A stretch of DNA of 64,000 bases. Origin: Candidatus Melainabacteria bacterium (GTDB lineage Bacteria; Cyanobacteriota; Vampirovibrionia; Vampirovibrionales; Vampirovibrionaceae). Where the stretch lies: the NCBI GenBank assembly GCA_050247195.1, contig JBFWUP010000004.1, positions 64,537 through 128,536 of the forward strand. Reading direction: 5' to 3'. The notes under the pieces were generated by a model. That model had not been told where the DNA came from. It did no database searches and saw nothing but the letters and a program-made list of their open reading frames with translations. Shown here piece after piece: positions 27,148-49,755 of this stretch (position 1 is its first letter; the number at the start of each line of letters is the position of its first letter). Both the position numbers and the translations under genes were made by a program.

Positions 27148-27288
27148 AAAAAAAATGCCCGCCGGTGGCAGGCAAAGTCTTGAGTAGAGTAAGTAGTAGA
27201 GTTAGAGTGTGTAGAAAAAATTGGAGTTGAGGTTTGTGTGGTATCCGCATAAAAACAGTCTTTTGGGTTTTTGTGCTAGTTTGTAACG
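27148..27288 (-). ncRNA. Putative small RNA module R1 (promoter-like motif, G-poor roughly 90-nt transcript, intrinsic terminator)
   Basis: It is the reverse complement of R2, matching over about 140 bp with one or two mismatches. It contains the ctagcacaaaaaccc…tgtttttatgcggata motif and a gcccgcc-acc-ggcgggc hairpin with a T-run. Confidence 0.3.
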
Positions 27289-27346
27289 TCATGTGTTTTC
27301 TATTTTCAGAATTATTTTCTGTTTTTAACAAATTTCTGCTGAATTC

Positions 27347-28183
27347 TTGAGCCCTCCGACCCTTTCCGGCACAATGGCAGAGCAGGCCAGTGAATACGGA
27401 GAGCCCCGACAGATGCCCCACAACGCCATGGAAACCGCCTATGCCGCGCCAGAGATAGCCTTTGGCCCTTGCGGCGAGCCGTGCGATTCCCCATGTGACT
27501 CTCCCTGTGAGGGCGGTGGGGAGGCCGAAGGCCGCCAGGGCTGGCTGCAGAAACTCCTCTGTACGGGTTTCAACAACGCCATTGATCTCTGCTTTGACGA
27601 CGTGTACGCCGAACCCAAAACCATCCTGATGGTGGGCGGCTGCCGCCAGCGAACCTTTGCCCAGCGCCTCGCCCTGATGCTGCCCGGCGCCGAGATTGCC
27701 ATGGTGGATCCCAGTGAGGAAGAGGCTGTGCGCGCCAAACAGGAAATCTGCTGCCGTTTTGAGTTTTTTGTGGCCCCCATGGACCGGCTGCCCTTTGAGG
27801 ACGGCCAGTTTGACCTGGTACTGGCCCATAATCTGGCCGAACTGCTCCCGCCGCAAACCTGGGAAAGCGGCCTGAAAGAGGTGTTGCGCGTGGCCGGCAA
27901 AAACGTGCTGCTCAGCCATCATCGCGGGGGACTGACCCGGGGGATGGAAAGCCTGCTGGGCCTGTGGCCCGGCGCCCCCAGCCGTCCGGTTCAGGCCGCC
28001 CTGAAAGCCGGCGGAATAACGCTGCCGCAGACTCCGGCCCCCAACCCCGCCGATGTGAGGGCGCAACTGCGCCAACTGGCCCCGCAATACGATTTCACCA
28101 CGGAACTCACCCCCTTTCCCTGGCACTTATATATGGGGGTTCACCGGCAGATTCTGGCCGAACACACAGCCCGAACCGCCTGA
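27347..28183 (+). CDS. Class I SAM-dependent methyltransferase with an N-terminal CxxxCxxxCxxxC cysteine cluster
   Basis: It has a Methyltransf_11-like core (ILMVGGC…DLVLAHNL) and an N-terminal GPCGEPCDSPCDSPCEGGGE segment. Inverted copies of the R module flank it. Confidence 0.65.
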   Translation: MSPPTLSGTMAEQASEYGEPRQMPHNAMETAYAAPEIAFGPCGEPCDSPCDSPCEGGGEAEGRQGWLQKLLCTGFNNAIDLCFDDVYAEPKTILMVGGCRQRTFAQRLALMLPGAEIAMVDPSEEEAVRAKQEICCRFEFFVAPMDRLPFEDGQFDLVLAHNLAELLPPQTWESGLKEVLRVAGKNVLLSHHRGGLTRGMESLLGLWPGAPSRPVQAALKAGGITLPQTPAPNPADVRAQLRQLAPQYDFTTELTPFPWHLYMGVHRQILAEHTARTA

Positions 28184-28239
28184 TTACCATCAATTTCAGC
28201 ATTTTCGGGGTAAAAAACCGCCCAAAACGCTTTAAATAG

Positions 28240-28391
28240 CGTTACAAACTAGCACAAAAACCCAAAAGCCTGTTTTTATGCGGATACCACACAAACCTCA
28301 ACTCCAATTTTTTTCTACACACTCTAACTCTACTACTTACTCTACTCAAGACTTTGCCCGCCACCGGCGGGCATTTTTTTTGGCCGTGAGC
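28240..28391 (+). ncRNA. Putative small RNA module R2
   Basis: It has the same promoter-like motif, a G-poor region (ccacacaaacctcaactccaatttttttctacacactctaactctactacttactctactcaag), a perfect gcccgcc-acc-ggcgggc hairpin and a T8 run. Confidence 0.3.
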
Positions 28392-28451
28392 CATCGTGGC
28401 AAGAAAGCCCCAAGAACAGCACTGCAAGTGGCCTTTATTTTGTTAATTTAC

Positions 28452-28568
28452 GGTTACAAACTAGCACAAAATTCAAAAATGGGGGTTTTATGCCCACAGA
28501 CAACACACTCTACTACTTACTCTACTCAAGACTTTGCCCGCCACCGGCGGGTTTTTTATTGGGCGCGG
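28452..28568 (+). ncRNA. Putative small RNA module R3 (diverged, shorter copy of R2)
   Basis: It contains ttacaaactagcacaaaa…ggttttatgcc…acactctactacttactctactcaagactttgcccgccaccggcgggtttttt. Confidence 0.3.
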
Positions 28569-29149
28569 GCCCCTGAAGCCGTATGGGCGGCAATCTCGGC
28601 GGTCTGCAGCGCACCCAGATACCGCAGCGGGTTGAGATACTGCTTCTTATAGTGCACCTCAAAATGCAGGTGCGGTCCCGTGGAACGCCCCGTGGACCCG
28701 ACGCCGGCAATGACCTGCCCACGCTGAACGGTTTGCCCGGCCTGAACAACCCAGCGGCTGAGATGGGCATACATGGTGTACAGCTGCTCTCCGTGATACA
28801 CCCAGACAATATTGCCGTAGCCCTTGTAGGGGCCAGCATACATCACCACACCCGGCTGGGTCACCTGAACCGGGGTGCCGGCCTGGGCGGCGATATCAAT
28901 GCCGCTGTGAAAACGGCTCCCCCCGTGCATCGGATCCTTCCGCCAGCCAAACTGGGAGGAAAGACGGCCGGCAACCGGGGAATACCGGTAATCCGTGGCG
29001 CTGTCGGCGCCGGGCAGCAGGGCGCACAGCAGCCCCAACGATGCCAGAAGACCCAGCGCCACAGGGCGCCGACCCACGCATCTGCGTACGGCTTGCAGCA
29101 ATAAACTCAGTGCCGGATTCTCCGTGAGGGACCTGATCCCGTTGTAACC
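28556..29149 (-). CDS. M23 family metallopeptidase
   Basis: It carries HSGIDIAAQAGTPV…YAHLSRWVV…GSTGRSTGPHLHFEV and an N-terminal TM segment. An internal Met was taken as the start. Confidence 0.8.
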   Translation of the reverse strand, partial: GYNGIRSLTENPALSLLLQAVRRCVGRRPVALGLLASLGLLCALLPGADSATDYRYSPVAGRLSSQFGWRKDPMHGGSRFHSGIDIAAQAGTPVQVTQPGVVMYAGPYKGYGNIVWVYHGEQLYTMYAHLSRWVVQAGQTVQRGQVIAGVGSTGRSTGPHLHFEVHYKKQYLNPLRYLGALQTAEIAAHTASGARAQ

Positions 29150-29150
29150 C

Positions 29151-29888
29151 ATGCCGTGCGCCTCCCGACTCCTGCGCCCGGGGGAGATCCGCCAGACGAA
29201 AAGGATGTTTTTTTCACCCGGGCAGGCTATGCTGTTGGGTGTTTCATCACCCAAACCGGATACCATGACCACGGCCGCAGCCACCCTTCTGTTTGAAACT
29301 GACGCCCTGAGCCTGCACCACCACCGCATGCCGGCCGCCGGGGAGCTGACTGTGGAAAAAGGCCCGCTGGTCCATATTCTGGTGATTTCGGGCGCCCTGA
29401 AAAACGAAACGGATCGCATTCACCCGGGTGCCGTCCTGACCTGCCCGGCCGGTGAAACCACCGTGCTGTCAAACCCGGGCCAGGAGCCGGCCACTTTTCT
29501 CACCCTGCAATGGCGCGGACAGCCCCAAAGCGCCCTGCCGGAACAATCCCCCACGGAAGTCCGCCCCTGGGGCAGCTTTACCGTCATCAGCGATGACCCC
29601 GGTTACAAAGTGAAGACGCTCACCGTCAGCCCGGCCGGCCGCCTGAGCCTGCAGCGCCACCAGAAGCGCGAAGAGCACTGGTTTGTACTGGCGGGCGCGG
29701 CCACCGTCACCGTCAATGAAAAAACGGAAACATTCTCGCCGGGCAGTTATATTCATATTCCCCTGCATGCGTGGCACCGGCTTGCCAACGAATCAGCAAC
29801 GCCGGTTGTGATTCTGGAAGTTCAGCTGGGTAGTTATTTTGGCGAAGACGACATTGAACGCAGCGCGGATGATTACGGCCGACATTAA
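29151..29888 (+). CDS. Bicupin protein (mannose-6-phosphate-isomerase-type cupin fold)
   Basis: The C-terminal half (RPWGSFTVI…KVKTLTVSPAGRLSLQRHQKREEHWFVLAG…) matches the type II PMI cupin. The start is uncertain. Confidence 0.55.
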   Translation: MPCASRLLRPGEIRQTKRMFFSPGQAMLLGVSSPKPDTMTTAAATLLFETDALSLHHHRMPAAGELTVEKGPLVHILVISGALKNETDRIHPGAVLTCPAGETTVLSNPGQEPATFLTLQWRGQPQSALPEQSPTEVRPWGSFTVISDDPGYKVKTLTVSPAGRLSLQRHQKREEHWFVLAGAATVTVNEKTETFSPGSYIHIPLHAWHRLANESATPVVILEVQLGSYFGEDDIERSADDYGRH

Positions 29889-29894
29889 TCCTGT

Positions 29895-31337
29895 TCAGGG
29901 CATGCTGAGCTGACTGAGATCCAGAGCCGGCGCATCGTACACCTTCGTGAGCGTGGCGCTGTCGCGCGCCGTGGGCAGCGGGTTCACGGGCACCGTGACA
30001 TTACGGCGGGAAACCATCGGCACATAGGATCGCCGCAGCCATTTGGGCGGAATATCCACCTGCTCCTGAGCCAGCACGGGATACATCACATCCTGCGGAT
30101 CATCGCTGTGGCCCCACAGGCCCAGGGCATGCCCCAGCAGATGCTGAAGCAGATGCATCCGGTATTCGCCCTGCAGCGGCCGGGCCATGGACAGGTTGAC
30201 CAGCAGCACGGTCCTGATCACCTGGGCGCCGGCCGGCCCCTGCCCCAGCCGGGTCACCGGGCGGACCAGTATGCCGTCGGGCGGAGATTCGCCGGACCAG
30301 CTGGCAATAATGTCGGCTTCCTGCTGCGTGGTCACCAGGCTGACAGGGAAAGTCCGGCGCCAGGCGGCAATGGCCTGGGTCAGTATGTCGGACTCCTCCG
30401 CGTCACCACCCTGAACGAAGACATTCACCGGCAGGTCATTCCAGCGCAGCAGCTGATTGCTGGCGGGCTTATTAATATTGTGGAAATAATCCCCCACGCT
30501 GATGGCCGATCCATCCGGCGCCAGACGTTTGGCCGACATCACCACACCCGAGGCGGACACATCAATGGGTGTCAGCATCGGCGCTTCCCGGCGGGTTTCG
30601 CGGCCCGGACGGGGCGTGGCTTCCCGGGTGGTGGCGATCACTGTACCGGTCCGTGAAAGTTTCACCCCTTTGGCCATCAGGGGAATGGTATAGGTCAGGC
30701 GCTCCAGGCGATCCTCCCACGGCTGTGTGGGGTTGGAGCGGCCAAAGGTATGTGTTTCCAGCCGGGCAACCCGGTTTTCCACCGGCTCATCCCCGTAATT
30801 CATCTGAAAAAGGCGTTGCTCCAGATAGTCCACCATCTTCATCTGATCGCCGGCCTCTTTCGCCTGGTTCTGGTGGCTGACCAGACTGGACAGACGGGAC
30901 AGACGGTCCTGCAGTTTGCCGGGCTGGGCGACACCGAGCAGGGATTGTTCGAGACGCTTGATGCGCGTCTGTACGGACTGATCCGCGTAGGTACGGCCGT
31001 AGGTTTTCTGTTCCAGGGCATTCAGATCCTGATTCAGGAGCGTGGAGCGCGGCCCGGTGAACACCCCATCCGGCAGTGCGCCGGCAGCCGACTGCAGCGG
31101 CACCGAGTAACGAAACAGGGTATTCGGGGTGGGCGCTCCGATTAAGGCGCCCGGGGGCTCTGTCCCCTGCGAAAACCCGGGCAGGGGACAAGCAGCCAGT
31201 ACCACCAATACCAGGAGTGCGGTGGAAACCGCAGCCAGAGCAGGCCCTTGGACGGGGCGGCCAGAATATCGGGGGCTGATCGGATACGGGGTCATGGCAT
31301 CGGGAACGAGGGGGTGGGGCACTCTCCGCTTCATCAT
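29895..31337 (-). CDS. Secreted protein with N-terminal RxxRLEQ-type repeats and a C-terminal zincin-like HxxGHxxGxxxH motif plus Met-turn
   Basis: It has a signal-peptide-like hydrophobic segment, four RIKRLEQSL, RLSRLSSL, RVARLETH and RLERLTY repeats, and …HLLGHALGLWGHSDDPQDVMYP…. Confidence 0.4.
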   Translation of the reverse strand: MMKRRVPHPLVPDAMTPYPISPRYSGRPVQGPALAAVSTALLVLVVLAACPLPGFSQGTEPPGALIGAPTPNTLFRYSVPLQSAAGALPDGVFTGPRSTLLNQDLNALEQKTYGRTYADQSVQTRIKRLEQSLLGVAQPGKLQDRLSRLSSLVSHQNQAKEAGDQMKMVDYLEQRLFQMNYGDEPVENRVARLETHTFGRSNPTQPWEDRLERLTYTIPLMAKGVKLSRTGTVIATTREATPRPGRETRREAPMLTPIDVSASGVVMSAKRLAPDGSAISVGDYFHNINKPASNQLLRWNDLPVNVFVQGGDAEESDILTQAIAAWRRTFPVSLVTTQQEADIIASWSGESPPDGILVRPVTRLGQGPAGAQVIRTVLLVNLSMARPLQGEYRMHLLQHLLGHALGLWGHSDDPQDVMYPVLAQEQVDIPPKWLRRSYVPMVSRRNVTVPVNPLPTARDSATLTKVYDAPALDLSQLSMP

Positions 31338-31490
31338 CCCCCCCTTGCCGCCTCAGGACAACCCCCAGGCAGGGGTCTTTGCCAATCCCCCATGCTTATG
31401 CTACGCTCGTGCCTCTGTCAGGGTCCTCACTGTCTACCCCTGGCGTTGCGATATTGACGAGACCCTGTGTCCCATCTGGAGGTTGAACCC

Positions 31491-31952
31491 TTGAATACCT
31501 ATGAAATTGTCCTGATCCTCAAGCCCGTGGTGGACGGCGACAACATCGACAATAATATGCGAGTCGTCGAGAAATCTCTCGATACCCAGAAGGCCAAGAT
31601 TATCCGCCGCGAAAAACTGGGACGTCGTCGCCTCTCCCACGAGATCAACAAATATAAAGACGCCTTTTATATGTCTCTGGTGGTGGAAATGGACGCCGAC
31701 AAAGTCCAGGAATTCCGCCGCGACTGCCACCTGAGTGATGATGTGCTGCGCGTGATGGTGATCCGCCTGACCAAATTTGACCCCAACGCCGAGAGCCGTC
31801 GTTTCCGCACCGAACGGCCCGAGCGCGACGAGCGTGGTGACCGGGGTCCTCGCGGAGACCGGGGCGACCGGGGTCCGCGCCGTGATTTCGGCGATCGGGG
31901 CGACCGTCCGGATCGGGGCGACCGCCCGCCACGCGGACGCGTCTCGGCCTGA
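31491..31952 (+). CDS. rpsF: 30S ribosomal protein S6 with an Arg/Asp/Gly repeat C-terminal tail
   Basis: A GGAGG Shine-Dalgarno lies 8 nt before a TTG start. The product begins LNTYEIVLILKP… and ends in the tail …RGDRGPRGDRGDRGPRRDFGDRGDRPDRGDR. Confidence 0.85.
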   Translation: MNTYEIVLILKPVVDGDNIDNNMRVVEKSLDTQKAKIIRREKLGRRRLSHEINKYKDAFYMSLVVEMDADKVQEFRRDCHLSDDVLRVMVIRLTKFDPNAESRRFRTERPERDERGDRGPRGDRGDRGPRRDFGDRGDRPDRGDRPPRGRVSA

Positions 31953-32099
31953 CACAGATTTTCCGGAAACCCGCCCACAGTGGCGGGTTTCTCGTACCCA
32001 TTACAATTCCCGGCCGGGGCTTCATAAACCCTTCCCACACCGGGGTGTTCTGGCTACTCTTAAAAGCAAGCAATTGATTAACGATTTGGAGGGCAGTTT

Positions 32100-32603
32100 A
32101 TGAGTCTGGCCAAGGCAACGGTAACCGGCATTCTGGCATCCGATCCGGAAAAGCGGTTTACGCCGAACAACCATGCAGTCACCACCTTTAACATCACGGT
32201 GGAAAATCCGCCTTTCGGCAAGCAGACGGCGCCCACTTTCTTCCAGGTTCGCATCACCTGCTGGCGCGGTTTGGCCGAAAGCGCCGAACAGATGCTGAAA
32301 AAAGGCGACGTGGTTCTGATTGACGGCAAACTGATCATCAACAGCTACCAGACACCCGAAGGGGTTCAGAAGCGCAACTATGAAGTGGAGGCCAATACGC
32401 TCCACAAACTCAGCGGATCACCCCAGGCAATTCAACCGGCTGTAGGTACCCCGGCTGCGGTTCAACCGGTTTCGGTTCAGGCTGGCTCTGTGCCCGCACA
32501 GCAGGCAACGGTTGCCGCCGCACCGGCCCAGTCTCCGGCTCAGGCGCCGGCCGGCAACTATGATTTTCTCTCCGACACCACGGAAGATGACATTCCGTTC
32601 TAA
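32100..32603 (+). CDS. ssb: Single-stranded DNA-binding protein
   Basis: It has an OB-fold N-domain, a Gln/Pro/Ala-rich linker and the acidic tip DDIPF. Confidence 0.9.
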   Translation: MSLAKATVTGILASDPEKRFTPNNHAVTTFNITVENPPFGKQTAPTFFQVRITCWRGLAESAEQMLKKGDVVLIDGKLIINSYQTPEGVQKRNYEVEANTLHKLSGSPQAIQPAVGTPAAVQPVSVQAGSVPAQQATVAAAPAQSPAQAPAGNYDFLSDTTEDDIPF

Positions 32604-32632
32604 CCTGCACAAACGGTAAAAGGTCCACAAAA

Positions 32633-32659
32633 AAGTCGCCGGAACCGGCGGCTTTTTTT
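32633..32659 (+). terminator. Intrinsic terminator after ssb
   Basis: The sequence cgccgg-aa-ccggcg is followed by gcTTTTTTT. Confidence 0.5.
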
Positions 32660-33174
32660 ATGAAAAAACTTCCCTGTCTGACGATCCGTTTTGATCAAAA
32701 AGTGATCTCCGGTCGGCACGCGGGGTCAAAGGATCTACTGCATCCGGAGGAGTGGGAGCAAACCCTTGCTCGGATTGTTTGCAGAAGGGTTCACCACACA
32801 TGCGCTTTGCTGAAACATGCATGGTGATTGCGTTTTACATGCCGTTCTTTAAAAAAAGCGATCGCTTTTTCCGCTTGAATACTCTCCACCAAAAACCGGA
32901 TAAATTCGGTAACGCCCCAATTTAGGCTCAAAAAGTATTGACCTATTTCAGAATTAATGCTTCACTGAGGTATATTTTGTTTATTGATGGAAGTGTTTTT
33001 CACAACTGTCAACCCATTTTCCGGAAGCAATTTTGAAAAATGTGGAAGCAAGATATGTGGAAGTACAGTTGGAGTTGTCTGTAACGTTTAGTGAGTCAAG
33101 ATGTGTCGAATGGGTAGGAATTTTTAGGTTAGTTTAGGTTACCCCTGGATTCAGTAATGTAAGGAGTCAGAACC
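32660..33174. promoter_or_regulatory. A 500-bp AT-rich non-coding leader upstream of the H1-like gene, carrying TGGAAG direct repeats
   Basis: It is the lowest-GC non-coding stretch in the window and contains no ORF. Direct repeats atgtggaag occur at about 33042 and 33057, and tgatggaagtg at about 32988. Confidence 0.4.
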
Positions 33175-33918
33175 TTGAAAACGACTGCGAAGAAAAAACC
33201 CGCTGCGAAGAAACCCGCAGCCAAGAAAACCACCAAGAAAGTGGCCGCCAAAAAGCCCACTGCCAAGAAAATGACCACCAAGAAAGTGGCTGCCAAGAAA
33301 CCGGCTGCTAAGAAAGCAACCAAAAAAGTAGTGGCCAAAAAGCCCGCTGCTAAGAAAACCGCAGCCAAGAAGCCCGTTGCTAAAAAAGCAACCACCAAAA
33401 AAGTGACGGCCAAGAAAACCGCCGCTAAAAAACCGGCTGCTAAAAAAGCAACCACCAAAAAAGTAGTGGCCAAAAAGCCCGCTGCTAAGAAACCGGCTGC
33501 CAAGAAAGCAACCAAAAAAGTAGTGGCCAAGAAAACCGCTGCTAAGAAACCGGTTGCCAAAAAGACTGCCGTAAAAAAAAAAGTAGTCTCTAAAACCGCT
33601 GCTAAAAAGCCACTCGCAAAAAAAAAAGTAGTGGCCAAAAAGCGCTCGGCTAATACGAAAACTGCCAGTAAAGCGGCAAAACCGGTCAACACCTTGTCCT
33701 CGCGGATTAAGGCGACGATCCAGGGTTTTGTGAACGCTCACCGTCAGTTCACCGCCAACGACATTTACGTGGAACTCGCGAAAACTGTCCGCGGCGTGAA
33801 CAAGCAGTCCGTCATCACGTCGGTGCTCAAGCAGATGAAAAGCAACTTCGCCACCGTTCGGGTCACCGAACGGGCGGGTGCAGGCCCCAGACCGGTCAAA
33901 CTGTACATTCCGGCCTGA
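33175..33918 (+). CDS. Histone H1-like lysine/alanine-rich nucleoid protein (KKPAAKK repeats) with a C-terminal globular domain
   Basis: An AAGGAG Shine-Dalgarno lies 9 nt before a TTG start. The N-terminal roughly 160 aa are tandem (A/T)KKPAAKK repeats, and the last roughly 80 aa are non-repetitive. Confidence 0.7.
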
Positions 33919-33951
33919 AACTGTACGAAAAATCGAGAGCCTGTCACTTCG

Positions 33952-35893: not shown

Positions 35894-37108
35894 TCAGGCC
35901 GCCACACTGGGGTCAATAGCCCGATCCAGATAGATTCTGGCCTTGCTGGCCATTTCCGAGGCGTCAATGGTGCCGTCGCCATTCACATCACCACCGGAAT
36001 TCTGAGTGTAGGCCGCACCATCCGCCTGGGTATAAAACGCCACTGTGGGATTGGAGGCAACATCATCCAAATAGGCCGGGGCAAACACCACCGAGTAAGT
36101 GGCCGCCAGGGAGTTAATTTTGCCTTTGGCGCCGTTGTTTTCGAAGTATTTCTCCACAAAGGGCAGCTGGCTGATCGGATCCATCGTTGACAGCGCCTCG
36201 GTCGTGGTCCCTGAACTCTCTGCCGAAGAATCCATGAACTGAATCAGACCGGTGGCGCCGCTGTCCGGGTTAGACACGTTATAAATAAATCCGGCGGATT
36301 CAAAACCCATCACGGCAAGTATAAAATCGGGATCGCCACCGAGACGGGTGGCCATGGCCTGCACTTCATTGATGAAGGTTTTCACCTGCTGGTGAATTTC
36401 CTCATCGCTGCCCAGTTGTTTTTCGGCCGGCATCCGGCTGTTGGCCTCCTTAAAGCCGTTAAAAATCCAGTCTTCCCAATGCTCGGCGGTCAGCCTGCCG
36501 TCAAACTGGTGGGCATCGCCACCGGTTGCAGTCACGTCCGGCGCAGCTAACTGATCATCTGTGCCGTCATCCTGGGCGCTGTCGGGCTTATCATTTGAGG
36601 TAGATTCATCTTTCGGGATCTGAGCCGAAAGCGCGAGAATCTGATCCAGAATGCCGCCGCCACTGCCACCACCGGCCAGCGCAGACATCCCGCCGGCAGC
36701 GGAAGGCACCCCGCCACCACTCAGCATGTTGATGGCGCCCATCAGACTGCCAATCCCGGCCGAAATCTGCTGGCTCATCTCATACAAAGCTGCTGTCGGG
36801 TCCGTCGGCATACCGGGCATCAGCGGGGGAGACGCAAACATGCCCAGCAGATCCTGAGCGACAAACAGATCCCCGGCCGGCGCTGCCGAACCGAACGCTG
36901 ACCACTCAGCCGGCAGGGATGCCTGCGCCTGCTGTACGTTCAGCATTGCCTGAACCGCCTGCGGGCACGCACCAGATTGTGGGCAACCATTGATCATGCG
37001 TCTGAACGTCACTCCATCCAGAATCCACTGACACAGCAGCGATTCAACTGACTCCAACTCCGTTGCGGTGCGCGCCCGGGGCACGCGACTGTACTCCAAC
37101 TTTCCCAT
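35894..37108 (-). CDS. Hypothetical protein with Gly-rich region, SLT-like (…ATGLIQFM…) segment and a C-terminal dockerin/EF-hand-like GDVNGDGTIDASE motif
   Basis: The call rests on motif reading only. No signal peptide was recognised. Confidence 0.35.
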   Translation of the reverse strand: MGKLEYSRVPRARTATELESVESLLCQWILDGVTFRRMINGCPQSGACPQAVQAMLNVQQAQASLPAEWSAFGSAAPAGDLFVAQDLLGMFASPPLMPGMPTDPTAALYEMSQQISAGIGSLMGAINMLSGGGVPSAAGGMSALAGGGSGGGILDQILALSAQIPKDESTSNDKPDSAQDDGTDDQLAAPDVTATGGDAHQFDGRLTAEHWEDWIFNGFKEANSRMPAEKQLGSDEEIHQQVKTFINEVQAMATRLGGDPDFILAVMGFESAGFIYNVSNPDSGATGLIQFMDSSAESSGTTTEALSTMDPISQLPFVEKYFENNGAKGKINSLAATYSVVFAPAYLDDVASNPTVAFYTQADGAAYTQNSGGDVNGDGTIDASEMASKARIYLDRAIDPSVAA

Positions 37109-37248
37109 TCCGTTACAGTAATAAAAACAGCCGCGCTACCGGAATTGCCCGACCGGGGTTCAGGGCTGTCCATTCTGTTACATGTCGCCTTCCAGATGCC
37201 CTTCCTCTATACTGACGGCAAGCCCGCCAAGCCACACCGGAGCGCCTT

Positions 37249-41828: not shown

Positions 41829-41830
41829 TA

Positions 41831-41871: not shown

Positions 41872-41879
41872 AAAGCCGG

Positions 41880-42487
41880 TTAATCGAGGCGGGATTCCAG
41901 ATAGAAGTTGGACCCCCTGGGGGCATTGGGGTCGTGGCCTGCCGGGGTTTCATCCAGCAGGGCGTTGGGATAAAACACATCAAAGAGATCCGGCCCGATG
42001 ATACTGCGCAGAATCCGCATGCCTTCAATGGATCCATCGTTCATGGCGGTGCGGGCGATATCGCTGAGATCCTGCAGACGCGGCTGTTCGCCCAGGTCGT
42101 CACACACTTTGCCGTAAACGGACAACAGGCCAATGGCATCGCCCAGAGAAAAGGCAAAGGCAACCAGCCCTTCCCTGGGCAGAGTGTACAGGGTACCCAC
42201 CGCGCGCTGAAGCCGGGGGTGCTGGTCATACCAGCGATCCTGGCGGGTTTTGAACTGGTAGAGCGCCTCAATGCCCGGCAGGCCGATGGAGGTGACGCCC
42301 TTCTCGTTGGCGGCATGAATCTGGCGGCGGACCTGCTCAGCGACTGAATGGACAAGATCCGCGCAGAAATCCCGGATGGTCCGTTCGCCAATATCGCGGA
42401 TCTGACGGAGCAGCTCGCTGATCGCCGTTTCCTGGTCGTACCAGCGGCGGTAATTATCCGTGAGAAAAGGCCCGGTTGGCGTGTTCA
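41880..42487 (-). CDS. Hypothetical protein
   Basis: This roughly 200-aa ORF (internal Met chosen) has no recognised motif. Confidence 0.4.
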
Positions 42488-42604
42488 TGATGGTTGGCGG
42501 CTGCCCTTCCCAATCCCTTATGCTATGGTTACCCATTGTACCGTGCCGGCAGCACGATGCCATGCAACCGGAACGGGGCCGTCTCATTGCAAAGGAATTT
42601 TCCC

Positions 42605-43576: not shown

Positions 43577-43585
43577 GTAAACAAA

Positions 43586-43625
43586 CCCCTCTCCCCCAAC
43601 CCCCTCTCCCCAAGGGGCGAGGGGG
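43586..43625. repeat. REP-like repeat copy
   Basis: The copy reads cccctctcccccaaccccctctccccaaggggcgaggggg. Confidence 0.65.
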
Positions 43626-43668
43626 CTTTCAGGTCATCTTTGTAAACTAATATTAACCGCCGGACGCA

Positions 43669-43710
43669 TCAAAAACCAAATGATTGTTTTTATGCGGTTG
43701 TAATCATTTT
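43669..43710 (+). promoter_or_regulatory. Promoter-like motif copy (…caaaaacc-N-ttgtttttatgcgg…) upstream of paralog 1
   Basis: It shares the AAAAACC / TTGTTTTTAT core with seven other copies in the window. Confidence 0.4.
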
Positions 43711-43801
43711 TTTGTGTTTTCTTCGATATTGGGATGGATGGAAAAGACTGCGGTCTCTTTTTGGGCCGCCACAGGTTGGGATAACGATAGGGGATTTGGA
43801 A

Positions 43802-44878
43802 ATGGGAATTCTTCAGAATCTGAAACTGGGCCGTGATCTGATGCAGGCTGCCAAGGCCTTCTCCGGTGAAAAGGGCACTGCCGCCCGCTGGACCGGCGAT
43901 CTGCTCACCGGCGCCGAGGGTCAGGAGACGCTGACGGCCATTCGTGGCTTTGTCGGTCATATCGATCGCAAACTAGGCAGCCAGTGGGCCAGTGAACTGC
44001 GCCTGGGCAGTAACAATGCCCCCACCAGACTGAGCAATTTTCTGCGCAGCAACGGCGTCGATGTGGATTCGATCATCGCCAGCCACAGTTCGGCGCTGAC
44101 ACAAACGCGGTCTGAAAATAAAGCCTTCCGGGAAGCCATATCATCGCTCCGTAAGCCCGACGGCAGCATCAACCGCGAGGCGCTTTCACCGCAATACCGC
44201 AAAATGCTGGAGGCACAGGAAAGCAAACTCAGCGCTGTGCGCGAGCGACTGGCCAACAAAGGCGCCCAGGTCCCTCAGGGCTCAGCCAGCCATGGCCTGA
44301 CCAATACGCAGGCTCCTGGTGGTTCGGTTCATATTGGGGGCACGCCCAAAGCCAATGCGACAGCCGGTACACAAACGGCCAGTAAAGCGACAATAAAACC
44401 CGGAATTGAGACCCGCGCATTTGGCGGTGCTCCGATTAATCCAGCGACCAAAGCAACGGCAACGCCACACCCACAGGCCATCGCGGTGGACCCTGCAGGC
44501 GTAGCTACGCTACCCAGCACAACCTCTGGTGCCACTTCCGGTGAGAAGAAATCTTGGTGGCAGCGGCTGACAGGCGGTAGCGACAGCAGCAACCCTGCAC
44601 CAGTCCGGCCACTGACAACACAGGAACAGGCGCTGGCGGATGCAAAGCTGAAAGCGAACAAAAATGGTGAAGCACTAGAGTTGGCAACGAGATATCGCCA
44701 ACAGCAAGAATCAGCCGTCCGGCTGGGTGTCCAGATCAACCGACAGGGTGTGGGCAAACCGGATACATTCCGGCATAACCTGATGACTTCAATTCAGGAA
44801 AGACTGGCGGTGCGGGCTGCACGAAAAAACGGTCAATTTAAACTGCCCACACCACAAGAACTTGGCTTGGGCGCATAG
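43802..44878 (+). CDS. Low-complexity protein, member 1 of the tandem paralog array (starts MGIL…)
   Basis: Its N-terminus MGILQNLKLG resembles that of paralog 2. The centre is Ala/Thr/Gly/Pro-rich and the promoter motif lies upstream. Confidence 0.45.
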   Translation: MGILQNLKLGRDLMQAAKAFSGEKGTAARWTGDLLTGAEGQETLTAIRGFVGHIDRKLGSQWASELRLGSNNAPTRLSNFLRSNGVDVDSIIASHSSALTQTRSENKAFREAISSLRKPDGSINREALSPQYRKMLEAQESKLSAVRERLANKGAQVPQGSASHGLTNTQAPGGSVHIGGTPKANATAGTQTASKATIKPGIETRAFGGAPINPATKATATPHPQAIAVDPAGVATLPSTTSGATSGEKKSWWQRLTGGSDSSNPAPVRPLTTQEQALADAKLKANKNGEALELATRYRQQQESAVRLGVQINRQGVGKPDTFRHNLMTSIQERLAVRAARKNGQFKLPTPQELGLGA

Positions 44879-45004
44879 TGGCTTAAAACGCAAACCTGAC
44901 CGACTGGGCCGGAGCAATCCGGCCCTTTTACCATCAGTGCTAAATTGCCTATTCACGGCACTTTCAACCGATACCAATGTGTAAAATTACAGAAACAATG
45001 CGGC

Positions 45005-45070
45005 AAACCGCCCAAAACGCCTAGCACAAAAACCCACAACATTGTTTTTATACATACAGATAGGGACTAA
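45005..45070 (+). promoter_or_regulatory. Promoter-like motif copy (aaccgcccaaaacgc-ctagcacaaaaaccc-N8-ttgtttttatacatacagataggga)
   Basis: The module is conserved, and the RBS region caggggacaagggcaacc is conserved downstream. Confidence 0.45.
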
Positions 45071-45130
45071 TCCACACTGAACGGATCATCAAGGCATTAG
45101 GGAATTCAGGGGACAAGGGCAACCACAGAC

Positions 45131-45856
45131 ATGGGCATTCTGATTTCAAGAATTATTGGCAGTCTGAAGACCACGGGTCGCAACGTGGACGGCTGGAAAC
45201 CCGCACTCAGCGAACTGAAAGGCGGCACGTCCTTTGCCAGTGACATCAAAACGATGTTCACCCCGGGCAGAGCCGACAACCTGAGAAACATTTACAGGAG
45301 TTATGCCCAGGGCAACAACAGACTGCTGGCCGCCGTGGCCACCGTGCGCGATGCCGAAGGCAGCTTTACCGGGGTACGCAATGCACTGCTGAACGCCACC
45401 GGCGCACTGCAGGGCCAGGCGATGAAACAACCCAAAGCCGCACGCATGCTGGGCCTCGCCGCACTCGGCGTGGGCGGGGCAGGGGCGCTCTGGTGGCTCA
45501 ACAGCAAGGATCACACCGGCAGTTCATCCATTTACCCGCCGGGCGTCACACCAGGGGGCGTACCCGGTGGCGGATATCCCGGTATGCCGGGTTACCCGGG
45601 CGGTGGTGGTTACCCCGCCATGCCGGGCTACCCACAGCCATATCCTTTTCCGGGGCAAACCCCCATGCTGCCGGGCGGCGGCTATTACGCCCAGCCGGGT
45701 TACATGCCGCCCCCCACGCCACCGCTGGCATCAGGGCTGCCTCCGGTCAATGATTCACCGTTTCCGATTGATCCGGGACACGCCAACCCGCCGTCATCCA
45801 TTTACGTTTCACCGTACGACGACGAAGGCTACTTCAACTTCGGAACCACCGCCTGA
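45131..45856 (+). CDS. Gly/Pro/Tyr-rich protein, paralog 2 (N-terminal helical domain, Gly/Ala hydrophobic segment, GYPG-repeat tail)
   Basis: It begins MGILISRIIGSLK…, carries LGLAALGVGGAGALWWL, and ends …GYPGMPGYPGGGGYPAMPGYPQPYPFPGQ…. Confidence 0.55.
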   Translation: MGILISRIIGSLKTTGRNVDGWKPALSELKGGTSFASDIKTMFTPGRADNLRNIYRSYAQGNNRLLAAVATVRDAEGSFTGVRNALLNATGALQGQAMKQPKAARMLGLAALGVGGAGALWWLNSKDHTGSSSIYPPGVTPGGVPGGGYPGMPGYPGGGGYPAMPGYPQPYPFPGQTPMLPGGGYYAQPGYMPPPTPPLASGLPPVNDSPFPIDPGHANPPSSIYVSPYDDEGYFNFGTTA

Positions 45857-46037
45857 AAACGCATTTCACCAACCAATTCATCTCACTCCAAATAGTCCCA
45901 ATATCATCCCAACCAACCGGTTGACGTCCCATGACGGCAGCCGGCTTTTTATTGCCGTAAAACCTCTCAGAAAGCGGGTTTACAGGACACAACAAAAAGT
46001 AAAGATTGGGTAACATGCCGGCAAAACCGACCCATCG

Positions 46038-46086
46038 CCTAGCATCAAAGTCCTCAGAAATGTTTTTATATGTACAGATAGGGACA
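46038..46086 (+). promoter_or_regulatory. Promoter-like motif copy
   Basis: The copy reads cctagcatcaaag…aatgtttttatatgtacagataggga. Confidence 0.4.
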
Positions 46087-46118
46087 GTCAGAAACATCAA
46101 TAAAAGACAGGGCACGGT

Positions 46119-46871
46119 TTGCTCCGGCAAACCCAAGGAACAGGGGACAGGGTCATTAGCATTCTCTCCACAATCAGTGACGTTGGCATGCACCTGAAGC
46201 TGGGTAAAAGCAGCTGGAAGGCATCGCGCATCATCAAGAAAGGCCTGAACAATGGCAAGGCCATTAATGATTTGCAGAAGGCCGCGCTGAAGAGCAGCAA
46301 GCCCCATTTTAACAACGCCTGGCTGAACGCCGAAGGCGACCTGAAACTCGCGCAGAGACTACTGAACCGCAACCTGCTGAAACCGACGCAGGGTCAGGCA
46401 CAACGCAAACATCTTTTGAATGCGCTGACAAACGCCTGGGAAGCCAGCGGCAAGGATCTTGAAAAAGGCATCCGCGAAGGCCTGCCGTTCTGGAACAGCC
46501 TCACGCTGGTCAAAAGCGGCGAGGCGTCCCGCGTCCTGAGTCAGATTTCACCCACAAAACTGGCGCTGGGTGCGCTGGCAGCCGGCGGGGCCGGCCTGGC
46601 CTACCTGAAGTGGGGACAGGACGTGCAGGCGCTGAACCTGGGTTATCCCGGTCAGATTCCACCCAGCCAGTGGTCACCGTTTTATCCGGCGCCGGGCAGC
46701 ACCGGCTACCCCGGAAACAATCCGGGCGCTTACCCCGGCTATCCGGGTCTCACGCCCGGCGGGCAAACCAACAATTTTCCGGGCGCAGACCCTTCGCTGA
46801 GCGGTGGCGGCGCCTATAACCCGGACGGCACCTTCCGGCTGAACGCCCTGAACAACGGCATTCTCAGCTAA
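46119..46871 (+). CDS. Gly/Pro/Tyr-rich protein, paralog 3
   Basis: It aligns with paralog 2 (ISILSTISDVG…, LALGALAAGGAGLAYL, …GYPGNNPGAYPGYPGLTPGG…). The aligned start position is an ATT at 46155; the ORF ATG at 46119 adds a 12-aa extension. Confidence 0.5.
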   Translation: MLRQTQGTGDRVISILSTISDVGMHLKLGKSSWKASRIIKKGLNNGKAINDLQKAALKSSKPHFNNAWLNAEGDLKLAQRLLNRNLLKPTQGQAQRKHLLNALTNAWEASGKDLEKGIREGLPFWNSLTLVKSGEASRVLSQISPTKLALGALAAGGAGLAYLKWGQDVQALNLGYPGQIPPSQWSPFYPAPGSTGYPGNNPGAYPGYPGLTPGGQTNNFPGADPSLSGGGAYNPDGTFRLNALNNGILS

Positions 46872-46883
46872 AAAAGCTATACG

Positions 46884-46932
46884 GCTAGCACAAAAAACCC
46901 CTTATTTGTTTTTATATAAACGTATAGGGATT
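46884..46932 (+). promoter_or_regulatory. Promoter-like motif copy
   Basis: The copy reads ggctagcacaaaaaacccc-ttatttgtttttatataaacgtataggga. Confidence 0.45.
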
Positions 46933-46951
46933 ATGGGAACAGGGACCAACG

Positions 46952-47464
46952 ATGTCAACCACATCCTCAGGATTTGAAGCGTTTCTGAAACTGGGCGGCC
47001 AATGGCTTAAAGGCTCAGGCAAAAAGGGCGCCGCCCGCAAAGCTGGCGCGCTGTTTTCTGTTGCGCTACCCACCCTGTTGGCGGCCCGAGGGGTTTATAA
47101 AGCCTACGCCAAAAACGTGGCCCGAACGGCCGTTAAAACCACCGCCAGCCAAGCCACGCATGGCGTGTGGCGCTCCGCTGCCGGACTGGCCGTGGGCGCC
47201 GTGGTTGGTGGCCTGGTTCTTGAAAAAGGCATTGGCATGCTGGCCAACCGCGGTGGCGGTGGCGCAACCGGTTTTGACGCAATGGCTCCGGGCGGCTACG
47301 ACCCGGCCATGATGGGCGCCGGTCTGGATCCATACGCGGCGATGGCAGGGTATCCCGGCGGCGGTTCCGCAATGGGTTCCGAATTCGGCCAGGCCATACC
47401 GGCCTCGGGCGGCAGCACCCTGGATGACGCCTGGCGCGCTTACAACAGCCTGGGCGTGGGCTAG
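46952..47464 (+). CDS. Gly/Ala/Met/Pro-rich protein, paralog 4
   Basis: It carries AAGLAVGAVVGGLVL and a tail …GGYDPAMMGAGLDPYAAMAGYPGGGSAMG…. The conserved leader acagggaccaacgATG lies upstream. Confidence 0.5.
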   Translation: MSTTSSGFEAFLKLGGQWLKGSGKKGAARKAGALFSVALPTLLAARGVYKAYAKNVARTAVKTTASQATHGVWRSAAGLAVGAVVGGLVLEKGIGMLANRGGGGATGFDAMAPGGYDPAMMGAGLDPYAAMAGYPGGGSAMGSEFGQAIPASGGSTLDDAWRAYNSLGVG

Positions 47465-47501
47465 GCAATAAAGAAGGCGCCGGCCATGCCGACGCCTTCT
47501 G

Positions 47502-47573
47502 TGCGAGTTCTGGGATTCGAACCCAGGGCCTATCCCTTAAAAGGGGAGTGCTCTACCGCTGAGCTAAACTCGC
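47502..47573 (-). tRNA. tRNA-Lys (anticodon TTT)
   Basis: It folds by hand into a cloverleaf: acceptor GCGAGTT/AACTCGC, D-arm GCTC/GAGC, anticodon loop CTTTTAA, T-arm CTGGG-TTCGAAT-CCCAG. CCA is not encoded. Confidence 0.8.
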
Positions 47574-47671
47574 AGATACGGGTGAGTGGGTGCGCCGTCA
47601 ACAGGCCTCTCGGGGAACAGCGCAGTATCCGATATTCTACCGTCTGAACGGTGGGGGTCAACTGTTCCTCG

Positions 47672-49012
47672 TCAAATCAACGTCAGGCTGGGCGTCAGAC
47701 CCAACGCCCGCGGTGCGCCGTGGAGCGGGTTGTCCAGCAGGATCGTCTGCACGCGTTCCGGCCCCACGCTGACCATGCTGATGGGACAGCCAATCAGTTC
47801 ACTCAGTCGCTTCAGATAACTGCGGGCATTCGCCGGTAAATCGTCCCAGGTGCGCACATCAGCAGTGGTGGTTTTCCAGCCGGGCAGGGTTTCATACACG
47901 GGCGTCATCCGGCTGAGATCGCTCAGGCGCGCCGGAAAGGCGGTGGTGACTTCCCCGGTGGCGTTGCTGCGGTAGCCTGTGCAGATCTGTATCGTCGCCA
48001 GATCATCCAGCACATCCAGCTTGGTGATGGCCACGCTGTTGAGTCCGTTCACCATCACGCTGTAACGGCCGATGACGGCGTCAAACCAGCCGCAGCGTCT
48101 GGGCCGGCCCGTGGTGGTGCCAATCTCCTGACCGGTTTCCATCAGGTAGCGGCCGGTCTCATCGGTTAATTCGGTAGGGAAGGGACCTTCACCCACGCGG
48201 GTCAGATAGGCTTTCATCACACCCAGCACATGATCCAGCTGGGTCGGCCCGATGCCCGAGCCGGTGCAGGCGCCGCCGGCCGTGGCGTTGGAGCTGGTAA
48301 CGTACGGGTAGGTCCCGAAATCAACATCCAGCAGCGTGCCCTGGGCGCCTTCCACCAGAATTTTCTGTTTTCCGGAGAGCGCTTCGTGAATCAGGCTGAC
48401 CGTATCGCAGACAAACGGCTTGAGCTGTTCAGCATAGTCGGCGCACAGGTTCATCAGCGCCTCCACATCCACAGGCGGCAGCTGATGCCCTTTGACCAGC
48501 AGGGGGTTTCTGGCGCCGGCAATTTCCGTCAGGCGGGCGCGGAGGCCCTCGGGGGTGTCGTAGAGATCGCCCACACGCAGGCCGGTGCGACCCACTTTAT
48601 CCATGTAGGTGGGGCCAATGCCGCGACCGGTGGTGCCGATTTTATGGCCGGTCCGCTCGGCTTCCTGGGCTTTGTCCAGCGCCACATGAAAGGGCAGGGT
48701 GATGTGGGCGCGGTCACTGATTTTGAGGTTGGTGACGGCAAAGCCGCGGCCCACCATTTCAGTCACTTCGCGCATCAGCACCGTGGGGTCAATCACCGTG
48801 CCGTTGCCAATCACGCAGAGCGGGTTGGCGTAAAGCAGACCGGAGGGGATCAGGTGAAACTTAAACAGCTGGCCTTCATGCTTGACGGTATGGCCCGCAT
48901 TGCAGCCCCCCTGGCAACGGACCACGATGTCGGCCTCGCTGGCCAGCATGTCCGTAATTTTGGCCTTGCCTTCGTCGCCCCACTGGGCGCCCACAATGAC
49001 AACATTGGCCAT
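47672..49012 (-). CDS. purA: Adenylosuccinate synthetase
   Basis: The product begins MANVVIVGAQWGDEGKAKITD…GHTV. An internal Met was chosen as the start. Confidence 0.9.
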   Translation of the reverse strand: MANVVIVGAQWGDEGKAKITDMLASEADIVVRCQGGCNAGHTVKHEGQLFKFHLIPSGLLYANPLCVIGNGTVIDPTVLMREVTEMVGRGFAVTNLKISDRAHITLPFHVALDKAQEAERTGHKIGTTGRGIGPTYMDKVGRTGLRVGDLYDTPEGLRARLTEIAGARNPLLVKGHQLPPVDVEALMNLCADYAEQLKPFVCDTVSLIHEALSGKQKILVEGAQGTLLDVDFGTYPYVTSSNATAGGACTGSGIGPTQLDHVLGVMKAYLTRVGEGPFPTELTDETGRYLMETGQEIGTTTGRPRRCGWFDAVIGRYSVMVNGLNSVAITKLDVLDDLATIQICTGYRSNATGEVTTAFPARLSDLSRMTPVYETLPGWKTTTADVRTWDDLPANARSYLKRLSELIGCPISMVSVGPERVQTILLDNPLHGAPRALGLTPSLTLI

Positions 49013-49187
49013 CGGTACGGCTTCCTTCCTGATACTGCATATGGTTACGAAATGGACCCACTGAGGATACCCCGGCCGGTGCCGGCTGGCAAGCCGCAGC
49101 ACGCTGCGCCACCGGCAGAACGCCATTGACTTACCCGCGCGGAAGGCTTACTGTAATGGGGCCTGCCGACCAACAGGACAAACCCAC

Positions 49188-49280
49188 GGAGAGGTGGCTG
49201 AGTGGTCGAAAGCGGCTTCCTGCTAAGAAGTTACAGGGTCAAAAGCTCTGTCGAGGGTTCGAATCCCTCCCTCTCCGCCA
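49188..49280 (+). tRNA. tRNA-Ser (anticodon GCT)
   Basis: It folds as GGAGAGG…CCTCTCC-G-CCA, with anticodon loop CTGCTAA, a long variable arm, T-arm GAGGG-TTCGAAT-CCCTC and an encoded CCA. Confidence 0.85.
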
Positions 49281-49301
49281 CTTTCCCCTTCTGATCCATC
49301 C

Positions 49302-49493
49302 TTACCGGACTTTGCGGTAGAGTGCGCGCCCTTCGCCGCGCTGGTCCTGCTCGGTCAGCCAGTCCAGAAAAGCCTCCTGGGAGTGCTCCAGACGGACTTC
49401 CACGTCCCGTGCAAAAGCCACCGGCAGAACATCCACCGTCAGGGGCTGCGCCATCCAGCGCTGCATCCAGTCATCAAAGGGGTTAAATGCCAT
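49302..49493 (-). CDS. Small hypothetical protein (63 aa) preceded by a copy of the TTGTTTTTATA promoter-like motif
   Basis: The ORF has no recognised motif. The promoter-like copy lies at 49598-49632 on the same strand. Confidence 0.3.
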   Translation of the reverse strand: MAFNPFDDWMQRWMAQPLTVDVLPVAFARDVEVRLEHSQEAFLDWLTEQDQRGEGRALYRKVR

Positions 49494-49755
49494 GAGAGCG
49501 GCCTCGGGGTCCGTTCCGTGGAACGGGGCGTGATGGTGTCGGTTCTCGTATCTGCTTTTCCGTCACCCGGCCTTTTCGACCTGATCAGAAGGTCCGGGTA
49601 ATATATATACTACAGATATAAAAACAATTTGTCATCCCCCCGTGCGCAAAATCAAACCCTATGTAACAAACATGTTACGTCTGGCGCGCTCACCCAGACC
49701 TTCAGCAAAACCGCAGCGCCGTTACCAGGCGTCCGGCTGCGCGCAAAGGCCCCGT

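Follow-up and report, generated by a model that had tools for sequence, protein, structure and literature searches.

A promoter class that stands apart from the housekeeping one and serves a regulon of its own is a well-known kind of object in bacteria. The attack-phase regulon of Bdellovibrio bacteriovorus depends on FliA (sigma-28) and includes a massively expressed non-coding RNA, and in the Gac/Rsm system the GacA box drives sponge small RNAs (sRNAs) with GGA repeats, CsrA binding ACARGGA in messenger RNA (mRNA) leaders. The Vampirovibrionia (Melainabacteria) are non-photosynthetic sisters of the cyanobacteria, and Vampirovibrio chlorellavorus is a Chlorella predator and a pest of algal ponds. 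Full-text searches for work on gene regulation in Vampirovibrionia (promoters, sigma factors, small RNAs, CsrA) returned nothing relevant, and neither sigma factors nor CsrA nor small RNAs come up in the V. chlorellavorus genome paper. Here we describe a recurrent two-block DNA element in a stretch of 64,000 nucleotides (nt) from a Candidatus Melainabacteria bacterium (contig JBFWUP010000004.1, positions 64,537 to 128,536; hereafter the window) and in related genomes of the order Vampirovibrionales. With a probability of roughly 0.7, we read it as a specialised promoter that either has an alternative sigma factor of its own or relies on the housekeeping one plus an activator at -35. Through it, sRNAs, orphan (ORFan) proteins of the envelope or of low complexity, and some cell-wall enzymes would be co-expressed.

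A two-block element of the Vampirovibrionales

The right-hand block of the element, TTGTTTTTAT, occurs exactly four times in the window (43684, 45042 and 46906 on the forward strand and 49618-49627 on the reverse strand), with 0.05 copies expected. Near-matches are CTGTTTTTAT at 27249-27258 (-) and 28270 (+) and ATGTTTTTAT at 46060, and a looser variant, GGGGGTTTTAT, lies at 28481-28491 (~28485). An upstream motif, CTAGCACAAAAACCC, is present in three exact copies and one copy with a single mismatch, as against 0.13 expected. A 35-nt position weight matrix (PWM) built from eight copies scores the sites at 24 to 53 bits, the top of 20 shuffled windows being 13.7 bits. A minimal model, GCA-N16-TGTTTTTAT-N5-YR (Y, pyrimidine; R, purine), fits eight window sites perfectly and nothing in 20 shuffles; its ninth site, at sRNA copy 3, carries two mismatches (0.25 in shuffles). 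All of these counts lie far above shuffles or expectation, and the motif is not random. The eight copies listed by the first-pass annotation are all real and were found where it had placed them; missing from its list was the perfect match at 37114-37150 (-). Of the nine sites in 64 kb, three stand before sRNAs and six before orphan or cell-wall genes.

To follow the element beyond the window, one genome per species (185,579 species) was scanned with TAGCAYAAAAA-N11-GTTTTTAT, and at least 117 loci matched. Loci fetched from other genomes or metagenome-assembled genomes (MAGs) are given L-numbers below, and the taxon labels of MAGs are taken as given. Among the matches listed, 35 are labelled Vampirovibrionales, Vampirovibrio (including V. 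chlorellavorus NCIMB 11383) or Melainabacteria, and 13 further ones are labelled 'cyanobacterium' or 'bacterium', labels that may be wrong, and show the same downstream features. The other listed matches come mostly from AT-rich genomes (Bacteroidota, Clostridia, archaea), where the pattern is expected by chance, and they look like chance matches. Since Vampirovibrionales make up far below 1% of the genome collection, the enrichment is very large. Metagenomes of the Joint Genome Institute (JGI) added 36 matches, 21 of them with the full signature. The core model finds 43 matches in 343 kb of Vampirovibrionales loci, eight of which fall outside the search pattern, and four in 478 kb of other DNA, none of them independent of that pattern. 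Among the matches listed from the species scanned, the motif belongs overwhelmingly to the Vampirovibrionales, and we read it as a promoter class found across that order. The first-pass idea of a small regulon in the window understates its extent, the class being order-wide and having a second sub-class.

We also noticed that DATNPJ01 (L013, L056, L102, L114) and DATNQC01 (L019, L046, L078) are labelled as Coleofasciculaceae/Oculatellaceae cyanobacteria, yet they carry the Vampirovibrionales promoter and gene families. The labels of these MAGs are probably wrong.

Orthologous genes tell the same story. A coiled-coil protein of 109 to 111 amino acids (aa), known from 98 clusters that are all unannotated ('hypothetical'), has the motif ahead of it in four genomes, that of V. 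chlorellavorus among them; its gene (L022:1412-1741 (+), L024:398-727 (+), L128:10001-10330, L131/L132/L133:10001-10336) is syntenic with CxxCxxCC and UPRTase genes. Seven homologues were fetched through the protein alone, the motif not being used. In all five related ones, from genomes of 51-64% GC, the element lies 62-178 nt ahead of the start codon, and the two promoter blocks are the sole conserved stretches in upstream regions that are otherwise unalignable. The other two homologues, distant ones of 32-38% identity from genomes of 31-33% GC, lack it, which places the conservation of the element inside the order and probably no further. A TGTTTTTAT promoter stands before the 109-aa gene in all Vampirovibrionales-like genomes that were examined, and the gene is probably a core and highly expressed member of the regulon.

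Anatomy of the putative promoter and competing readings

An alignment of 49 Vampirovibrionales sites (59 for the Y-R and GGGR counts) brought out positions that are not fixed by the search pattern and yet are conserved, namely a C before TAGCAC, a TT before GTTTTTAT, giving TTGTTTTTAT, and, after GTTTTTAT, the series R, C/T, A, n, A/T followed by a pyrimidine and a purine. This last purine is A in 37 and G in 12 of the 49 sites. The Y-R step falls 6-7 nt past TTTTAT at 56/59 Vampirovibrionales sites, as against 5/41 chance matches in other taxa, and the 5 nt between TTTTAT and the step form an A/T-rich discriminator. The left block, (C)TAGCAC, is -35-like and stands 15 nt upstream of the TG, usually with an A-tract next to it; this tract is common and dispensable, being absent from the 49.6-kb site and from L084. 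Accepted variants of the left block are TAACAC, GCGCAC (also in L009 and L032), ACGCAT and TGTCAC. When TGTTTTTAT alone was searched for, CAYAAA was found exactly 18 nt upstream in 44 of 69 occurrences, and over all fetched DNA 92 sites share one spacing of the blocks, a single one (L133) being 1 nt longer.

Because these blocks and the Y-R step are conserved, we take TTGTTTTTAT as an extended -10-like element (TG-T-TTTTAT) and CTAGCAC as a -35-like one. The earlier proposal of a promoter-type element is supported. The geometry would put +1 at the purine, TTTTAT at -12 to -7, the TG at -15/-14 and TAGCAC at -36 to -31, with an 18-nt spacer. As in extended -10 promoters, a T precedes the search-fixed G in 35/49 sites, and all but one of the nine window sites have the TG.

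Eight further TGTTTTTAT sites carry GGCAAT in place of TAGCAC, with GCA in the same register, and are T-rich past TAT. This class 2, to which the 37.1-kb site of the window belongs, keeps the -10 block and the spacing of class 1, with GGCAAT at -35. A third -35 variant, GTTCCAA, precedes two sRNAs of a GGA-repeat type in L128 (~360 and ~594, -). Since the TGTTTTTAT block and the start site are common to all classes, they would constitute the core promoter element, and the variable left block would be a -35-like or activator site.

Several observations suggest that initiation takes place at the element itself. In sRNA copy 3 of the window, the body common to the other copies begins ~12 nt past TTTTAT; a separate promoter would not fit into that interval, so the motif has to contain it. 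Five GGA-type sRNAs from other genomes align exactly from the predicted +1, the five preceding bases being variable. The sites are intergenic and are co-oriented with a nearby open reading frame (ORF), with leaders mostly of 17-220 nt, or with a terminator-ended RNA.

The element might instead be the operator of a dimeric transcription factor, either a repressor or a MerR-like activator, in the form of an imperfect palindrome GCAYAAAAAC-N10-GTTTTTATGC lying over an ordinary promoter. Reverse complements of true sites do score as weak sites, class 1 being partly symmetric (GCAYAAAAA / TTTTTATRC); the half-sites are ~20 bp (two helical turns) apart at a nearly rigid spacing, and a canonical-looking ATGACA-N17-TAGTAT overlaps the element at 49.6 kb. 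However, the asymmetry is conserved as well, with CAC/CAT always in the left half and TAT always in the right, and the symmetric TTTTTGTGC is seen at no site, save as the reverse complement of a real one; just ~40% of sites end in GC. In class 2 and in the GTTCCAA variant there is no palindrome, the right half alone being kept. Nor do the 49 sites share a canonical -35/-10 pair beneath or beside the element, and the fixed distance of 7 nt to the Y-R step is as expected for a -10 element. We consider an operator of this kind unlikely.

The first-pass annotation had placed the promoter in another register, with TTGTTT as the -35 and GATTAT or ATATTA 17 nt on as the -10. That spacing is seen at only two of the eight sites (GATTAT at 46.9 kb and ATATTA at 49.6 kb), and the columns 17 nt past TTGTTT are almost without information (<0.4 bits) in the 49 related sites. 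A form of this reading with a group 3 sigma factor keeps (T)TGTTT as the -35 and replaces the TATAAT-like -10 by GGGAYA, 11-13 nt past GTTTTT. Three window sites indeed read GTTTTT-N13-GGGAC/T, resembling the Bacillus subtilis sigma-B consensus GTTTAA-N12-15-GGGTAT, and GGGR starts at about +2 to +5, that is 8-11 nt past TAT, in 23/59 related sites. Yet the upstream block and the Y-R step are kept in the 36/59 sites (5/9 in the window) that lack GGGR, the spacer would be 11 nt in most genomes, too short for the family, and nothing would remain for the invariant CTAGCAC 15 nt upstream to do. Either form of this register appears distinctly improbable to us.

A strong generic housekeeping promoter that defines no regulon, a possibility the first-pass annotation had itself raised, would fit the frequency of the element (9 sites in 64 kb). 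It would also fit the stretch AAAATTGRC that is often found directly upstream of CTAGCAC (~-45 to -37) at sites outside the window (e.g., L009, L012, L032, L120, L145; not present at the window sites) and is like a proximal UP-element subsite. However, the tRNA-Lys and tRNA-Ser genes of the window, with TTGACC-N16-TAGAAT and TTGACT-type promoters, and a tRNA gene in L042 all conform to a canonical TTGACx-N16-18-TAnnnT without TGTTTTTAT, from which it follows that the housekeeping sigma factor is conventional and the element a separate class. It is likewise absent from dnaK, purA, rpmF, ssb and ~40 other annotated genes of the window, ~45 housekeeping genes in all, and Pfam domains are almost never found in the first genes behind it. 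Besides dnaK and purA, the window holds uvrB, ruvB, accC, efp, fab genes, parts of type IV pilus and secretion systems and a flagellar rod gene. In our view, a generic promoter is very improbable.

Hardly any weight is given to a dispersed repeat, such as a miniature inverted-repeat transposable element (MITE) or a cassette remnant, copied along with duplicated genes and having no regulatory role. It would account for the 99% identity of sRNA copies 1 and 2 over ~150 nt, for the sites in tandem arrays and for a short stretch, AAACCGCCCAAAACGC, common to the regions upstream of three window sites. Against this, the element is conserved across genera before both unrelated and orthologous genes with unconserved flanks, its orientation to the downstream gene or RNA is strict, and its position-specific conservation is typical of protein-DNA contacts; among 2.9 million viral contigs there were six matches, none beyond chance, and a phage origin was rejected on that count too.

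The specialised promoter has its own difficulties, which we weigh together here. Group 1 sigma factors need an A at -11; TTTTAT has the T at -7 and, at all sites, a T at -11, and in place of TTGACA stand TAGCAC, TAACAC, GCGCAC or GGCAAT at 18-nt spacing. We know of no sigma factor with a TTTTAT/TAGCAC specificity. The transcription start is predicted from geometry and the Y-R step, the near-invariant spacing would also suit a single protein touching both halves, class 1 sites are imperfect palindromes, and the collection of sites was seeded with the strongest form of the motif. Finally, no gene for a sigma factor or transcription factor was found in the window or in ~0.9 Mb of related DNA: tblastn with RpoD, FliA, SigD, RpoE, CsrA and FliW gave nothing in the window or the Vampirovibrionales loci, and Pfam revealed no regulator among 54 ORFs downstream of sites in other genomes. 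We nevertheless infer that a dedicated sigma factor or activator is involved, and an alternative sigma factor, suggested at the outset, is still the best guess. On the specialised-promoter reading, the RNA polymerase that starts at the Y-R step would have either a dedicated alternative sigma factor or the housekeeping one assisted by a dedicated -35 activator, and initiation there would co-express terminator-ended small RNAs, fast-evolving ORFan membrane and G/Y/P-rich proteins and some cell-wall enzymes.

Small RNAs, proteins and leaders behind the element

Three sRNA-like modules lie at 27.2-28.5 kb. Copy 1 (27147-27242, -; ~95 nt) consists of an unstructured 5' arm without G and an intrinsic terminator after it, and its class 1 promoter (CTAGCAC...CTGTTTTTATGCGG; 27245-27279, -) scores 52.8 bits with the PWM and matches the core perfectly, with a predicted start at 27242. 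Copy 2 (28286-28382, +; ~97 nt), whose terminator at 28355-28373 runs into T8, has its class 1 promoter at 28249-28283 (+), found by both PWM and core model, with a predicted start at 28286. The promoter of copy 3 (CTAGCACAAAATTC...GGGGGTTTTAT; 28461-28495, +; predicted start 28498) is a degenerate class 1 site of 36.2 bits with two core mismatches, and the RNA (28498-28558, +; ~60 nt) shares its 3' 45 nt and terminator with copies 1 and 2. The three terminators are the three best intrinsic-terminator matches in 20-40 kb and lie 60-97 nt past the sites. In copies 1 and 2 there is not a single G in the first 65 nt, a stretch predicted to be unpaired, and the fold z-score of copy 2 (-6.6) is owed to the terminator hairpin only. 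With their promoters, copies 1 and 2 (27147-27288, - and 28240-28382, +) form an inverted repeat of ~150 nt, 98-99% identical, bracketing an S-adenosylmethionine (SAM) methyltransferase ORF (27347-28183); an identity of this order in an inverted repeat suggests a recent duplication or gene conversion.

These RNAs fit no family in Rfam. Over the whole window at gathering threshold, Rfam reported two tRNAs and no sRNA family; at permissive E-values the sRNA region reached at best 24 bits against a 70-bit threshold, the sub-threshold matches (mmgR/suhB, AgvB, RprA and similar) all being weak, and no homologue of the window sRNAs was found in any fetched locus. Duplex energies of the sRNAs with the regulon leaders are no better than with shuffles, perfect antisense 9-11-mers are no commoner than in shuffles, and as sRNA targets the regulon leaders rank 6th to 41st among 56 genes. 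In the leader of the SLT gene described below, two GUUGGAGU repeats are complementary to ACUCCAAU of sRNA copies 1 and 2; the best duplex, at -18.4 kcal/mol, is within the top 0.65% of random 25-mers and not significant across the 175-nt leader.

Between the sRNA modules and the protein array, a Lys/Ala-rich protein encoded at 33175-33918 (+) matches the chlamydial histone-H1-like HC2 family (E = 1e-25), and its coding repeats yield many terminator-like matches on the opposite strand.

The six protein genes behind the element begin with the single class 2 case, in which the promoter GGCAAT-N14-TGTTTTTAT (37114-37150, -; perfect core match, predicted start 37114) precedes an SLT (lytic transglycosylase) domain gene at 35894-37108 (-), for which NCBI gives a start at ~36946. 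A tandem array at 43.7-46.9 kb follows, with one class 1 promoter, found by both PWM and core model, ahead of each of four genes. The first promoter (ACGCATCAAAAAC...TTGTTTTTAT; 43663-43697, +; predicted start 43700) is a variant and serves ORFan protein 1 (43802-44878, +; 358 aa) through a 102-nt leader with GGGA/GGA repeats. The second (45021-45055, +; predicted start 45058) precedes ORFan protein 2 (45131-45856, +; 241 aa), whose 73-nt leader contains AGGGAC, AGGGAA and AGGGGACAAGGG; this protein has a helical N-terminus, one predicted membrane helix and a G/Y/P-rich tail. A variant promoter (CTAGCATCAAAG...ATGTTTTTAT; 46039-46073, +; predicted start 46076) stands before ORFan protein 3 (46119-46871, +; 227-250 aa by the start chosen), which is of like architecture, and the fourth (46885-46919, +; predicted start 46922) before ORFan protein 4 (46952-47464, +; 170 aa), with a 30-nt leader, GUAUAGGGAUUAUGGGAACAGGGACCAACG. 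The last site, a class 1 variant without the A-tract (GCGCACGGGGGG...TTGTTTTTAT; 49614-49648, -; 24 bits with the PWM, perfect core match, predicted start 49611), is followed after a 118-nt leader by a 63-aa ORF without Pfam match (49302-49493, -).

None of the four array proteins has a Pfam domain, their mutual identity is just 18-26%, and three of them, judged from their translations, combine a helical N-terminus, one hydrophobic segment and a G/Y/P-rich tail. A search of 5.8 billion proteins with ORFan protein 2 returned only the protein itself, which NCBI lists as a hypothetical protein '[Candidatus Melainabacteria bacterium]', and BLAST of the window proteins against ORFs behind the motif in other genomes gave no match. 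Tandem arrays of the same layout, each gene with its own promoter, also occur in L009, L032, L038, L041 and L118. The 54 downstream ORFs from other genomes, which comprise first and second reading frames, mostly lack any Pfam domain; where domains were found, two members have glycine zippers, LysM, YkuD and pilin-type N-methylation are matched once each, and the rest are single housekeeping domains, which most likely belong to second ORFs. Many of the products behind the motif are rich in G, Y, P, Q and N. The proposed link between the sRNA modules and the low-complexity proteins holds, and does so in many other genomes as well.

Elsewhere in the window, two adjacent large ORFs (245 and 756 aa; 53049-56078, -) have neither a TGTTTTTAT promoter nor a Pfam domain. 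A small ORF and a PIN-domain protein at 5057-5655 (+) form a VapBC-like toxin-antitoxin pair in a low-GC patch (48% vs ~60%), and a SET-domain protein with the lysine methyltransferase fold is encoded at 10560-11123 (-); SET-domain proteins are uncommon in bacteria.

The leaders differ between the two classes. Predicted class 1 transcripts typically begin with ACAGGGAC, with more GGGA repeats down to the ribosome-binding site, and in their first 60 nt contain 1.84 GGGR and 0.38 GAGA/AGAG motifs per transcript, the corresponding figures for class 2 being 0.25 and 5.0. GGGA density in class 1 leaders is 1.54/100 nt vs 0.35 in the background. The 109-aa gene shows the pairing within one set of orthologues, with a class 1 promoter and a GGGA leader in four of five genomes (L128, L131, L132, L133) and a class 2 promoter and a GAGAG leader in L129. 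The same promoter also drives a family of ~95-nt sRNAs in other genomes (L012:1941-2065(-), L014:193-317(+), L096:7617-7741(+), L102:5959-6083(-), L107:7485-7609(+)), laid out as 5'-ACAGGGACA, a variable hairpin, GGGGGACAUAGACUGGGUU and a terminator, and belonging to no Rfam family. Among the sRNAs behind the promoter are this conserved GGA-repeat type and, occasionally, C/U-rich ones (L051, L114, L147), the G-free RNAs of the window being the extreme.

The core determined for CsrA by systematic evolution of ligands by exponential enrichment (SELEX) is ACARGGA, which the 5'-terminal ACAGGGA of the leaders equals, and many leaders have multiple GGA motifs with the last at the ribosome-binding site. 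In the window, the leaders show no excess of structure over shuffles, most GGGA motifs lying in unpaired stretches rather than in hairpin loops. Because tblastn found neither csrA nor fliW in the window or the fetched loci, and because the window leaders are unstructured, we can only speculate that a second, RNA-level control operates through a CsrA-like protein or C/U-rich antisense RNAs. A wider proposal, of a two-layer, lineage-specific global switch, is possible and at this point doubtful: through the promoter, a dedicated sigma factor or activator would turn on a fast-evolving set of ORFan proteins, of the envelope or of low complexity, possibly an attachment or predation machinery of these algal predators. 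The class-specific leader repeats (GGGA or GAGAG) and the sRNAs made alongside, both GGA-repeat sponges and G-free C/U-rich RNAs, would gate translation through a CsrA-like protein or an antisense pairing new to the cyanobacterial lineage.

Significance and comparison with known systems

The consensus, its restriction to one order, the sub-classes with matched leader repeats and the ORFan and sRNA cargo appear to be undescribed, and searches of the literature with the motif string led only to unrelated papers. The signature is sharp enough to read the regulon straight off any Vampirovibrionales genome or MAG, and it marks out dozens of ORFan proteins that lack annotation, along with new sRNAs, as parts of a single co-regulated programme. 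The regulator should be findable by matching sigma-factor and transcription-factor content to the presence of the motif across the orders of Melainabacteria. The element is also a candidate native promoter for work in these organisms, and the species-specific ORFans behind a conserved promoter-leader module are a possible case study of how new genes gain expression.

Several known consensus sequences were compared with the sites and rejected. After TAGCAC, a sigma-54 promoter (TGGCAC-N5-TTGCW) would have its second block 5 nt on, and here AAAAA and then a non-TTGC sequence follow, the second block being 15 nt off. The group 3 sigma form GTTT-N12-17-GGGTA(T/A) finds GGGR rightly placed in 23/59 sites only, and readings as HLR1/RpaB or MerR-type consensus were ruled out against the site sequences. 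The CIRCE/HrcA heat-shock operator, a perfect 9-bp inverted repeat (TTAGCACTC-N9-GAGTGCTAA), comes closer, in that CTAGCAC resembles the left-arm TTAGCAC, the element has an inverted-repeat flavour and one copy adjoins dnaK. However, the right arm GAGTGCTAA is absent at all sites, the arm spacing differs, no element lies upstream of dnaK itself and the downstream genes do not encode chaperones.

At the RNA level, the single-stranded C/U/A-rich 5' arm and terminator of the window sRNAs recall the C/U-rich anti-Shine-Dalgarno sRNAs (RsaE/RoxS, mmgR and the cyanobacterial Yfr1). They differ from these in having no CCC/UCCC seeds, in falling below every Rfam threshold and in a predicted pairing with regulon leaders that is no better than with other genes. 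The Gac/Rsm-CsrA system shares a conserved DNA element before small RNAs and a repeated (A)GGGA(C) of which the last copy is at the ribosome-binding site. Here, unlike there, one promoter drives both GGA-rich mRNAs and sRNAs, the 5' arms of the window sRNAs have no G, and the GacA box TGTAAG-N6-CTTACA is absent.

Among predators, the attack-phase regulon of Bdellovibrio offers a parallel, in that a single dedicated type of promoter serves many hypothetical proteins and, with them, an abundant small RNA, as the element described here may do. The lineages are unrelated and the sigma-28 consensus TAAA-N15-GCCGATAA does not occur here; neither of its blocks is present at any of the nine window sites. 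The anatomy is closest to that of extended -10 sigma-70 promoters (TGnTATAAT), with two blocks, a TG one base before the -12 to -7 hexamer, a -35-like block 18 nt upstream and a Y-R start 7 nt downstream, and differs from it in having TAGCAC/TTTTAT in place of TTGACA/TATAAT, no A at -11 and a practically invariant spacer. With the alternative-sigma regulons as a group, the element shares a coherent gene set and a promoter distinct from the housekeeping one.

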